64,000 nt of DNA from a plasmid. The stretch lies in the NCBI RefSeq assembly GCF_056712565.1, contig NZ_JBWXXM010000002.1. One strand, 5' to 3'. This document shows positions 16,883 to 54,690 of the stretch, one piece after another (the stretch's first letter is position 1; every line of letters begins with the position of its first letter). The notes below the pieces were generated by a model. That model saw only the letters and a list, made by a program, of their open reading frames with translations, was not told where the DNA came from and searched no databases. The translations under genes were made by a program, and so were the position numbers.

Positions 16883-17164
16883 CTATCGGTCTAAAAGCTG
16901 ATCCATTAATAATTCTTCGTAAAGCCCAGAGGTATCGGGCTTTATTACAATATCCGTTATTTCGAAGCGTTCAAGTACAAATTGCAGATATTCCGGAGTA
17001 ACGTAGTAGGGATCAGGTTCAGCCAGATTAGTATAGAGTGGGTCTTCTGCTGCATTAATGTCATAATCAATGCACATATGAAACCACTGCAAAGGTGGAT
17101 CCCAGCCTAACATCACCTGAACAATTCCCTGATTGCTTTTCACCTCATACCAGTGCTGGCTCAT
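16883..17164 (-). CDS. Hypothetical protein (93 aa)
   Basis: ORF only; AT-rich region; no recognisable motif. Confidence 0.3.
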   Translation of the reverse strand: MSQHWYEVKSNQGIVQVMLGWDPPLQWFHMCIDYDINAAEDPLYTNLAEPDPYYVTPEYLQFVLERFEITDIVIKPDTSGLYEELLMDQLLDR

Positions 17165-17213
17165 ACTTAGTCCTTAAGAAAATTTGTCATCGGAAAATAA
17201 CACGAAGCCTGCA

Positions 17214-17405
17214 TCATCGAGGCGCATAACCTTCTTCCCTTAACGCCTGTTGTAATTTATCAACTGCGCTTTTCATTACCCAGGCTTCTTCGTCACTCAC
17301 AGCACAACCACGTAGATCGCTCCAGCTCAGACGTTTAACAAATTGAGCAAGGGCCATAGTTTCGTTCTCATCAAGCCGCAAACTCAGTGTCTCAATACCT
17401 TCCAC
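17214..17405 (-). CDS. Hypothetical small protein (63 aa)
   Basis: ORF only. Confidence 0.25.
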   Translation of the reverse strand: MEGIETLSLRLDENETMALAQFVKRLSWSDLRGCAVSDEEAWVMKSAVDKLQQALREEGYAPR

Positions 17406-17496
17406 AATCTAACCTCCCTTATAATGAAAAATGGCGCTTTACTTCTGACCAGATGCCGAAGCCTTGAATGCAGCCGGAACTGTCGTTGTTTCTACT

Positions 17497-17868
17497 TTAC
17501 AGAAATGGAATTAAAAAGTGGTGATGCTGGGCACGTTTCTTTTCCAGCCGGGGTTTAAGCCAGAGCTGAAACTCATTCAACTTCTCAGCAGCCAAAACCG
17601 CTTCAACGGGGAAAACTTTATATTTACCCTGTTGCTGAGGTTCACCCAGCCATCGCCTGATGGCTCCGTCAGTCCATAAACGAGTCTCTTTTAGCCTAGT
17701 TACAGTGACCCATTTTCTGGACCATTCATCAAATTGTCGCTGGCGATCCCGATAACGTTGTTCTTCCTGCTGCCGAAGCCACTCGCGATCAACAGCAAAT
17801 TTTCGGTATCCAACAAAGAGCCCTTGTACTTTGGCCATGTCATATTCCGGTTGCTTAGAGTTACTCAT
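17497..17868 (-). CDS. Hypothetical protein (123 aa)
   Basis: ORF only, ATG at 17866-17868. Confidence 0.35.
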   Translation of the reverse strand: MSNSKQPEYDMAKVQGLFVGYRKFAVDREWLRQQEEQRYRDRQRQFDEWSRKWVTVTRLKETRLWTDGAIRRWLGEPQQQGKYKVFPVEAVLAAEKLNEFQLWLKPRLEKKRAQHHHFLIPFL

Positions 17869-18171
17869 TCAACCAAAACCTAAACGTCGATACAAACTCT
17901 GTTTCATAACCAGGGTTTTATCCTTACCGCGACAGTAAGTAACAGGGGCTGCATAAACCGGTCATTTAGTCCGTTATGCAAAAATTATTGAGGATCCGGG
18001 CTGTTAAACTGTTCTTCCTCTTTCGCTTCCGGTGAAAAGGGGAGGTGTCACCCTGCGAGCCCGTGTAGTGAAAGGGATTCGTCGTAATACAGGCCAAAGG
18101 CTAACATGACCGCAAAGGACGCCCGGGCGACCGGATACCTGCCGGGTTGTGCGATGTAAAATCCGGAAGCA

Positions 18172-18570
18172 GTGATAACACAAACAGGCCCCTACAGCGT
18201 AAGGATTGTGATGGACGATAAAGAGCAGTTTACGAATCTTGTGGCAAAGCATGCCTCCGGACTCACCGAAGAGCAGCTGGCCGGGTACGATGCCTGTTCC
18301 CTGGATGGTGAATGCGTCACGCCTTCATACGAGGTTTTCCGGGGGTATCGTACCCGCCACACACTGGATGAATTTCTGGAGATGGCCATATCGCTGAATG
18401 CCATCCACCCGGATGAATATTTAACGGATATGCTGCTGAAGCCTCATGAGGTGATCGGCGCTCTGGCCGATGAAGGCGACCAGCTGAACAACGCCACCCC
18501 GGTTTATTTCTTTCCGGATACCGGCGTCTATGCAGCGGCCGTTAGTGAAACCCGGGTGCTCGATGCCTAG
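18172..18570 (+). CDS. Hypothetical protein (132 aa)
   Basis: ORF only; alternative start MDDKEQF at 18211. Confidence 0.35.
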   Translation: MITQTGPYSVRIVMDDKEQFTNLVAKHASGLTEEQLAGYDACSLDGECVTPSYEVFRGYRTRHTLDEFLEMAISLNAIHPDEYLTDMLLKPHEVIGALADEGDQLNNATPVYFFPDTGVYAAAVSETRVLDA

Positions 18571-18671
18571 CTTTGCTGGCCATGCTACCCGGCGAACTGG
18601 TAACGCGGCCGTTGGAATTGCACCGGCCGGATACGAATTTAACCGATCCCGTGGCGGGAAGGCTATCAGAG

Positions 18672-18924
18672 TTGCATGTCCTCATCCCTCAAGCCCCCTG
18701 CCAGGCCCCAACGTGCTGTCAGGCTTCGCCTGATTCCCGATCTGCGCCGATACTTCAGCCGATAACTTTTTGTTTTCTTTTTATTTTCTTCCCATTTCCT
18801 CAAAAATCGCGGGCGGCGTGGACAGGGCACCATTGCCGCATGTGGGGTCTTAATAAGGGCAGGGTGGTCAGTTTTGCTCGATGCCATGGGTAGGCCCTCC
18901 CCTTCATGGGATGAGGACATGCAA
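18672..18924. repeat. Pair of 17-bp perfect inverted repeats bracketing about 220 bp
   Basis: TTGCATGTCCTCATCCC at 18672-18688 and its exact reverse complement at 18908-18924. Confidence 0.5.
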
Positions 18925-19076
18925 GTAAGCTAACTATCTGAAATGACGAAGGTTCATTTGGTGAATGTCGCTTCATATTAATGTTGTGTCACTTATGATC
19001 GTATGTAGCTGGTTGCAAAGAGGAGCGATGAGACAATAAAGTTGTATCGCTAACAAGATTTATGCTGCCACATAGT

Positions 19077-19177
19077 AACAGCCTAAAAGTTGTACGCCCT
19101 ATTTAACAGCTTTTAGGCTGTTAATTTGATATTACAGCTTTTAGGGTGTATGTTTAGGAAACAGCCTGCAAGGTGTA
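19077..19177. promoter_or_regulatory. Putative hipBA promoter/operator region with repeated ACAGC(C/T)T half-sites
   Basis: Perfect 13-bp IR AACAGCCTAAAAG (19077-19089) / CTTTTAGGCTGTT (19110-19122) plus two related copies before the hipB ATG at 19204. Confidence 0.35.
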
Positions 19178-19203
19178 TCAGAGGAAACTACTGAGGCCAG
19201 CTT

Positions 19204-19500
19204 ATGATCAATAATGATTACCCGTTAAACACGCTCAACCAGCTGCGTCCCTTGCTCATTGGTTTTCGCAAGGCGAATGGCCTGACGCAAAAAGACCTGT
19301 CCGAAAGGTTAGGCGTCACTCAACAGACATACTCACGTCTGGAAGCCAACCCTGCCAGTGCGAGCATTGAACGGCTATTCAAGGTGTTTTCCATCCTGGG
19401 CGTAAAAATCAGCTTCTCCTCGGCAACCACCTCTTCAGAGAGGAAGCAGACGGAAGAAATGCTTAAATCAAACTCACCTGCACGACAGGAGGATTGGTAA
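19204..19500 (+). CDS. hipB: HipB-like HTH (XRE-family) antitoxin
   Basis: ORF 98 aa; HTH segment (LTQKDLSERLGVTQQTYSRLE); immediately upstream of hipA with 4-nt gap. Confidence 0.75.
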   Translation: MINNDYPLNTLNQLRPLLIGFRKANGLTQKDLSERLGVTQQTYSRLEANPASASIERLFKVFSILGVKISFSSATTSSERKQTEEMLKSNSPARQEDW

Positions 19501-19504
19501 CGAT

Positions 19505-54162: not shown

Positions 54163-54690
54163 GGTGTGTAATAGACGGAGCGCGAGGCGACTACTGGTCA
54201 GGGTTTGCGCAAGGCGGGTGTGTAATAGACGGGAGGGGATCGATCCGGCGATCCAGCCTGTGGATAGTCCGTCTATTACCCACCCGGTTCCGTCGTTTAC
54301 CCACCCAACCCCGTCTATTACCCACCGGAAACCGTCTATTACCCACCGAGGGGTTCTATAAGCAACTGATAATGAAGGTAAATTTTGCCTTCTGATTCCC
54401 TAAAACTCTTTAAAACAAAAAAAACATATATAAAACGTGTAGCCCTGGGGAAAACAGCCCGTGGAATTATGGACAATCCGGCAAGCCGGATACCTGCCTA
54501 ACCGCTTCGCGGTTCCCCATTGACAGGCCAGGGACAACCGCGAGCGGTTGCCCCCACCCTGCCAACAGGTCGGCAGTTGCCCACAATACCACCGGCTCAA
54601 GCAACAGGATTTTTTTATATTTTTGTTTTTAAAAGAAAAAAGCGGCCGTGCTCTAGTGGCATGGCCGCGTTACGTGGTCCTATCAGGGGC
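54163..54690. other. oriV-like module: iteron array, GC-rich palindromes, 32-bp AT-rich tract, further palindrome
   Basis: Four direct CCGTCTATTACCCACC-like 16-mers at exact 21-bp period (54269, 54290, 54311, 54332) plus two inverted copies (54163-54178, 54217-54232); AT tract 54610-54641; palindrome GCGGCCGTGCTCTAGTGGCATGGCCGC. Confidence 0.5.

Follow-up and report, generated by a model that had tools for sequence, protein, structure and literature searches.

A conserved non-coding element closed by a perfect 17-bp inverted repeat in the backbone of IncHI multidrug-resistance plasmids

The locus and its inverted repeat

The window, i.e., the whole 64,000-nucleotide stretch of DNA analyzed here, comes from an IncHI2 plasmid, and the region under study is 100% identical to that of E. 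coli and Salmonella IncHI2 plasmids such as pMCR_W5-6 and pSTM6-275. Directly upstream of the element lies a backbone gene for a 130-aa protein (18211-18603, + strand; WP_000341066 family, as annotated in related plasmids), which is the first + strand gene of a co-directional array following a divergent intergenic region. The window copy carries an in-frame TAG at 18568-18570 where homologues read TGG, and alignment with these homologues shows that the early stop removes the conserved C-terminus WLxWPCYPxNW of the protein. The true stop is at 18601-18603, and other IncHI2 records annotate the full protein to the equivalent of 18603. Searches against Pfam, PHROG, and PADLOC returned no match for the 130-aa protein, and a fold search with its AF2 model (pLDDT 87) gave no convincing one. 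The spacer between the true gene stop and the element (18604-18671) contains, on alignment, the insertion point of a Tn7-like transposon at approximately 18617-18628.

Downstream, Pfam assigns the neighboring genes to hipB and hipA (HTH_3, HipA_C, and Couple_hipA). In the matching plasmids the element itself is unannotated, with the 130-aa gene preceding it and the hipBA toxin-antitoxin module coming after. The original prediction had placed the repeat between two hypothetical genes; this description suits the upstream gene, but the downstream neighbor is hipB/hipA. Four operator-like dyads of the form ACAGC-N6-GNTGT, spaced by about 28 bp, occupy 19071-19177 directly upstream of hipB (19204) and overlap a predicted promoter at 19126-19154. 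These dyads are presumably HipB operators, with a sequence unlike the TATCC-N8-GGATA sites of E. coli.

The left arm of the repeat, TTGCATGTCCTCATCCC, lies at 18672-18688 on the + strand, and its exact reverse complement, the right arm GGGATGAGGACATGCAA, lies at 18908-18924. The arms are 17 nt each, 100% complementary, and separated by 219 nt, exactly as predicted in both coordinates and sequence; paired, they would form the two strands of a closing stem, here termed P1. Among perfect inverted repeats of at least 17 nt with arms no more than 600 nt apart, this is the sole case in the window, where simple arithmetic (64,000 x 600 x 4^-17) gives a chance expectation of about 0.002. The arm sequence has no third place in the window even at three mismatches (shuffled sequences averaged 0.15 matches). 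The enclosed segment had been described as GC-rich, but it is not uniformly so, because it holds a mostly-T pyrimidine tract of 36 nt at 18766-18801. The arms thus close a 253-bp non-coding element that has a fixed place in the backbone of IncHI multidrug-resistance plasmids and has not been previously described.

The window has further inverted repeats. At 54163-54326, two interleaved 17-nt inverted pairs (GGTGTGTAATAGACGG/CCGTCTATTACCCACC, 94% complementary) fall within 165 bp. At 51782-51830, in a high-GC accessory region, a perfect 15-nt inverted pair (CTTTATCACTGATAA/TTATCAGTGATAAAG) with arms 19 nt apart resembles an operator.

Several candidate identities for the segment were considered and rejected. 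On the - strand, an 84-aa open reading frame that runs from arm to arm is broken in other lineages. On the + strand, a frame of 93-106 aa is open in all lineages, and substitutions fall 7:8:10 over the three codon positions in the comparison of the window with R27. No Rfam family matched either strand of 17000-21000 at E <= 1. A retron msr-msd was set aside, since the segment is followed by hipB/hipA or other cargo and annotation shows no reverse transcriptase for at least 8 kb. For a hok/sok-like type I toxin, the only candidates were a 27-aa frame that starts with TTG and lacks a Shine-Dalgarno sequence (18770-18853) and the frame lacking third-position bias.

Distribution, transposon insertion, and exchangeable cargo

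In Salmonella, E. coli, and Enterobacter, plasmids of the IncHI group rank among the major carriers of multidrug, mcr-1/mcr-9, and heavy-metal resistance. A 277-nt query spanning the element matched exactly one place per plasmid in 1,452 plasmids, always at this locus, across the IncHI1, IncHI2, and IncHI1B types. These plasmids are mostly conjugative and come from Escherichia, Salmonella, Enterobacter, Klebsiella, Citrobacter, and other hosts. The element is present in 405 of 5,426 complete E. coli genomes, nearly always on a plasmid. Homologues occur in IncHI1 plasmids (R27, 79% identity, at 152,165-152,427), in Pantoea and Citrobacter plasmids typed as IncHI1B, and in contigs from metagenomes. 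With nhmmer, a profile search recovered just the known copy from the window and from each locus retrieved for comparison, and the element was not found in genome and viral contig collections that included 100,044 species-representative genomes. A search with the T-rich tract alone against 100,000 species genomes gave only chance matches in AT-rich genomes, and no such element follows the distant homologues of the 130-aa gene in L010 (52% identity) and L007 (39%). Given one locus per plasmid and none in the other collections, the element is a single-copy backbone feature of the IncHI group. The two findings by which the original prediction was to be judged therefore part ways: other copies in the replicon are absent, while conservation across plasmid lineages is very strong. 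One low-coverage gut-metagenome contig (L037, 1641-1880) has an element of the window type that lacks 13 internal nt (ACTTCAGCCGATA) immediately ahead of the T-tract, which could be a natural variant or an assembly error.

The same survey bears on the idea, raised in the original prediction, that this is a miniature inverted-repeat element, i.e., the terminal repeats left by a defunct transposable element after its fixation in an ancestral IncHI plasmid. The dimensions, with 17-bp terminal inverted repeats and about 250 bp overall, are typical of MITEs. However, approximately 1,450 plasmids each have a single copy, always at this locus, with no paralogues and none in the genome or viral collections. 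The flanks (ATCAGAG/TTGCATG and CATGCAA/GTAAGCT, the slash marking the element boundary) contain no target-site duplication, nor is there one in other lineages. Moreover, the arms and core are constrained more strongly than the adjacent protein gene, which is not expected of a relic. The element is not mobile, and a MITE origin is close to refuted and would now be very surprising. The geometry of perfect inverted repeats around some 220 bp also suits an invertible switch in which a recombinase flips the 219-bp segment, as in fimS or the invertons of gut bacteria, and the backbone encodes a tyrosine recombinase a few kb upstream. Against this, none of 1,403 matching plasmids covered at least 80% of a query with the interior flipped, and all lineages share a single orientation. 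The segment does not invert, so that a switch is refuted at the level of assemblies and we give it next to no credence.

The left flank of the element is a target of transposition. A Tn7-like transposon encoding TnsA, TnsB, TnsC, and TniQ has inserted between the 130-aa gene and the element, at the equivalent of approximately 18617-18628. The junction lies 51 nt from the left arm in L017 and pEQ2 and 41 nt from it in L009 (coordinates L017 1228-1530, L009 2740-3045, and L040 20586-44700) and was detected in 26 of 1,400 plasmids. The tnsA end of the transposon faces the element, and its position and orientation agree in IncHI1A and IncHI2 backbones. In pEQ2 the transposon measures 24 kb and carries fructo-oligosaccharide utilization genes. 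By analogy with attTn7, the sequence recognized by the transposon may comprise the spacer and the left arm; recognition by TniQ is suggested by this geometry.

The right flank is exchangeable. The right arm is followed by hipBA in the window lineage, by a 3.3-kb cassette with Bunzi-like BnzA/BnzB in other IncHI2 plasmids (BnzB, PADLOC E = 6.5e-53), by a conserved 67-76-aa gene and a 401-aa gene in IncHI1-type plasmids, and by IS66 in lineage E. This right-hand slot is a hotspot for cargo of the toxin-antitoxin and defense types. The three genes of the 3.3-kb cassette (L005 4266-7601; also in L009 and L019), found in Enterobacter- and Citrobacter-type IncHI plasmids, encode a trypsin-like protease, a membrane protein with a weak BnzA match, and a BnzB-like protein.

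Anatomy, conservation, and predicted folding

We aligned 14 distinct element sequences from seven lineages. Total length is 252-254 nt in every lineage. The left arm is invariant in 13 of the 14 sequences, the exception being an uncompensated change of the outermost T to C in lineage E; the right arm is invariant save for an uncompensated change of the innermost G to T in lineage D. Inside the arms, consensus folds of both strands predict a second helix, P2, between CCCTGCCAGGCCCCAACGTG (18696-18715) and CGCGGGCGGCGTGGACAGGG (18808-18827). P2 comprises 16 pairs with interruptions, 96% of its cells in the alignment are paired, and its variation is concentrated in bulge and internal-loop columns. 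It would enclose a 7-bp hairpin (GTCAGGC-TTC-GCCTGAT, 18718-18734) that can pair in 14/14 sequences, with a TCC loop and a basal G.U replaced by G:C in lineage F. Also within P2 is the 36-nt pyrimidine tract CTTTTTGTTTTCTTTTTATTTTCTTCCCATTTCCTC (18766-18801), which is predicted to be unpaired in the consensus folds and contains two 11-nt units of CTTTTTRTTTT.

This left domain is held more tightly than the neighboring protein gene. For lineages C, D, and E, nucleotide identity is 68-69% in the adjacent gene, 81-87% in the P2 domain, and 94-100% in the arms; between lineages at this level of gene identity, the pyrimidine tract retains 83-94%. By contrast, the right domain (18828-18907, 80 nt) varies in sequence: the window lineage is only 46-56% identical to each other lineage here, R27 and L033 are 64% identical to each other, and low identity persists even where the adjacent gene is 95% identical. 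Folded alone, the right domain did no better than shuffled sequences. A G-quadruplex in this domain was considered and rejected, as lineages A, B, C, and F have G-runs there and lineages D and E have none. Comparing IncHI2 with IncHI1 (the window with R27), nucleotide identity is 95% for the 130-aa gene, 87% for the conserved domain of the element, and 54% for the right domain, a contrast suggestive of recombination with a breakpoint in or at the element, more than of divergence at an even rate.

BLAST homology between the window and seven comparison loci (L003, L005, L008, L012, L016, L017, and L019) stops exactly at 18924, the last position of the right arm. Weak similarity continues in some of these seven loci, which share TATCTG some 13-15 nt beyond the arm, and this similarity suggests that in such loci the end of homology reflects divergence rather than a true breakpoint. 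IncHI1-type and IncHI1B-type plasmids, though not the window lineage, have a degenerate third copy of the right arm (ATGATGAGGTCATGCAA or TAATGAGGTTATGCAA) about 350-370 nt downstream of it, just past the conserved 67-76-aa gene (L016, approximately 2107-2127; L004, 4617-4633; L006, 4070-4086).

In structure prediction, which the original prediction proposed as a check for RNA, the element folds much more stably than its shuffles. As RNA, the + strand folds with z = -4.5, with none of 200 shuffles equaling it; as DNA, both strands fold beyond shuffles (z = -4.3 for the + strand and -3.9 for the - strand). Standard pairs account for 98% of the 560 pair cells in the alignment, compared to 26-41% when partners are slid by 1-3 columns. 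In P2, the pair 38:141 (element positions) takes four types, namely AU, UG, CG, and UA. In the region of P2 and the hairpin, 8 of 46 paired columns vary compared to 8 of 13 unpaired columns (Fisher p = 0.003). The two nested repeats are off-centre, with P1 centred near element position 127 and P2 near 90, an arrangement more in keeping with a multi-domain fold than with a dyad-symmetric protein complex.

The preference for one strand is weak. Some pairs are possible on the + strand only, i.e., the invariant U43.G138, G47.U63 (G:C in lineage F), and the U.G states at 38:141, and two other positions favor the - strand. Candidate P2 positions are paired at 18-20 of 23 on the + strand and at 17-19 of 23 on the - strand. 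Furthermore, 31 of the 40 pairs never vary and both changes in the arms are uncompensated, so that the evidence for the fold consists mostly of sequence conservation rather than covariation. Such conservation is explained equally well by protein-bound DNA sites. The long RNA stem and the protein-binding sites suggested in the original prediction are both compatible with these data.

Candidate functions and known systems

Our leading explanation, to which we assign a probability of roughly 0.35, is that the element acts as a folded single strand, preferably RNA, with sequence-specific contact sites. We infer from sequence that it folds in vivo, which strand does so, that it is transcribed, and what it might do. 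The two arms would form the closing stem P1 of a 253-nt non-coding element. Inside P1, a conserved left domain would present P2, the 7-bp hairpin, and the exposed 36-nt pyrimidine tract, and a second, right domain would have a sequence free to vary. The folded strand would most likely be sense (+) RNA made via read-through from the 130-aa gene that heads the co-directional array. At the boundary between backbone and exchangeable cargo, such a fold could serve as a signal for processing, stability, or termination control, and the invariant arms and tract may be contact sites for a plasmid or host factor beyond being pairing partners. Scans of the element, the 130-aa gene, and the sequence just upstream of each detected no sigma-70 promoter or intrinsic terminator for an independent RNA. 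The element is kept intact where a 24-kb transposon or an IS30-associated deletion parts it from the 130-aa gene, which indicates that co-transcription with this gene is not essential.

The persistence of the element without the upstream gene, or with that gene displaced by 24 kb, also fits a different explanation, namely that the element works as double-stranded DNA and a protein recognizes the arms as two inverted copies of one non-palindromic 17-bp site, some 236 bp apart from centre to centre. The arms are invariant and show no covariation, while the adjacent 80 nt are approximately 50% identical and the downstream DNA is unalignable; the constant length of 252-254 nt in all lineages points the same way. 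In addition, the TniQ-bearing Tn7-like element targets the flank beside the left arm, and selectors of the TniQ type bind double-stranded DNA. What this explanation leaves unaccounted for is the conserved interior, i.e., the off-centre nested P2, the hairpin, the pyrimidine tract, and the excess variation at unpaired positions. We regard it, tentatively, as the main rival to a folded strand.

A more specific version, which we consider rather improbable, holds that the arms are Ter sites of a diverged IncHI Tus and form a polar fork trap of 0.25 kb, whose recognition sequence bears no relation to the chromosomal GTTGTAAC core. Converging forks would then meet in the conserved T-rich core, and the Tn7-like transposon may have evolved to use this protected site as its attachment site on the plasmid. 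IncHI plasmids do encode a Tus-family protein (in IncHI2, Pfam Ter, E = 1.9e-19): tus lies at L020 33035-33997 and L041 10023-10982 (R27 162,022-162,981), and an orthologue is also present in pEQ2. The R27 gene lies about 10 kb from the element, counting the RepFIA insertion, and the number of plasmids with Tus resembles that with the element (1,414 records at >=80% protein coverage vs approximately 1,450). A precedent may be plasmid R6K, in which Horiuchi and Hidaka reportedly described an inverted 20-bp Ter pair in 1988, and an inverted, non-palindromic, invariant pair of sites would match the expected look of a plasmid fork trap.

Other observations argue against Ter sites. The arms lack the GTTGTAAC Ter core; searches with the core consensus GNRNGTTGTAAYKA located no canonical core near the element or near tus, and the arms share only GGATG with TerC. 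Being very diverged, the plasmid Tus could nevertheless have a different site. Upstream of the plasmid tus, the position that TerB takes on the chromosome, there is no site like the arms, only a loose GAGG...ACATG resemblance. The Tus proteins of IncHI1 and IncHI2 are only 60% identical, yet the arms are identical at 17/17 positions, and GC skew does not change sign at the element (18.8 kb). IncHI Tus had no sequence match in the PDB, and a literature search found no description of its cognate Ter sites. A more distant version of Tus (about 25% identity) is found on more than 1,300 Klebsiella plasmids.

The folding of both DNA strands raises another option, that the element is a folded single-stranded DNA on the strand transferred during conjugation, either as an ssi priming signal or as an Frpo-like promoter for the downstream array. 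R27 has oriT/mobI and its MobH relaxase at 103.9-108.9 kb. From oriT/mobI to the element the distance is some 44 kb, on the side opposite the relaxase, and the genes around the element are transcribed towards oriT. With the array pointing towards oriT, analogy with F and RP4 would make the transferred strand the - strand of the window and the template of the array genes. The neighborhood is also establishment-like, with an orphan cytosine methyltransferase, DUF1173, DUF4942, HNH nucleases, a toxin-antitoxin pair, H-NS/Hha, and umuDC; islands with such establishment genes occur in leading regions (PMC11541004). However, nothing promoter-like is present on either strand of 18672-18924, where the stem has no -35/-10 elements, and the continuous duplex of only 17 bp is too short for a promoter mimic; a single-strand promoter of the canonical type was rejected for want of hexamers and for this short stem. 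The G.T evidence leans slightly towards the + strand rather than the probable transferred strand, and the GCGAAGC mini-hairpin of the - strand is lost in lineage F. There is, moreover, a single copy, 44 kb away from oriT. On balance, we consider a role on the transferred strand unlikely. A second copy of oriT was also considered and rejected, only chance words of 7-10 nt being common to the element and R27 108.1-108.95 kb.

A deletion series in R27 bears on plasmid maintenance. The plasmid remains stable in E. coli after deletion 15 (150,566-156,499), and only deletion 16 lowered stability (PMC4853401). Deletion 15 covers the homologue of the element, which argues against an essential role in replication or partition; the element is not needed for the vertical stability of R27 in E. 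coli.

The significance of the element lies in a non-coding sequence being held tighter than the neighboring protein gene at the edge of a slot where toxin-antitoxin and phage-defense genes are swapped. Its tight conservation, its place at the edge of the cargo slot, and the use of its flank by a transposon make it a plausible handle on plasmid replication, establishment, or cargo organization. If the arms are Ter sites, they would represent a second Tus-Ter recognition code; if the element is an RNA, it would represent a new plasmid RNA family. Either way, the invariant pair of 17-mers is a clean diagnostic marker for the IncHI backbone.

Known systems provide partial parallels. In R6K, Tus causes polar arrest of forks at inverted Ter sites. 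The likeness is that two inverted, non-palindromic sites of about 20 bp lie within about 0.2 kb on a replicon that encodes or uses Tus; the IncHI element differs in having neither the GTTGTAAC core nor a GC-skew flip, and in its strongly conserved interior, which Ter pairs need not have. The REP/BIME and ERIC sequences of Enterobacteria are likewise intergenic palindromes with the capacity for stable stems at transcript 3' ends. Those, however, are multi-copy and chromosomal. The IncHI element occurs once per plasmid, is specific to plasmids, measures 253 nt, and is asymmetric in its conserved interior. The Frpo/ssi elements of F and ColIb-P9 are folding, non-coding plasmid elements of about 250-330 nt located upstream of co-directional establishment genes, and in elements of this type the downstream genes are templated by the transferred strand (PMC11541004). 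In contrast, the IncHI element has no -35/-10 boxes or sequence similarity to them, has a continuous stem of 17 bp, and is present in a single copy 44 kb from oriT.

The parallel with attTn7 concerns the use that a transposon makes of the element and not the element's own function. In both, a TnsABC and TniQ system inserts in one orientation at a near-fixed distance, here 41 or 51 nt from the left arm. In attTn7, TnsD recognizes the 3' end of glmS; the recognized sequence here would be non-coding and plasmid-borne.

A further parallel is with the cis-acting operon RNAs that follow a first small gene, such as cro-nutR of lambda, put of HK022, and conAn of pLS20. The IncHI element lacks boxA/boxB or a put-like motif, and the resemblance is positional only. 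As in those systems, a structured element capable of acting as RNA lies between a first small gene and a long co-directional array, and its sequence-invariant segments could contact a protein or RNA polymerase.
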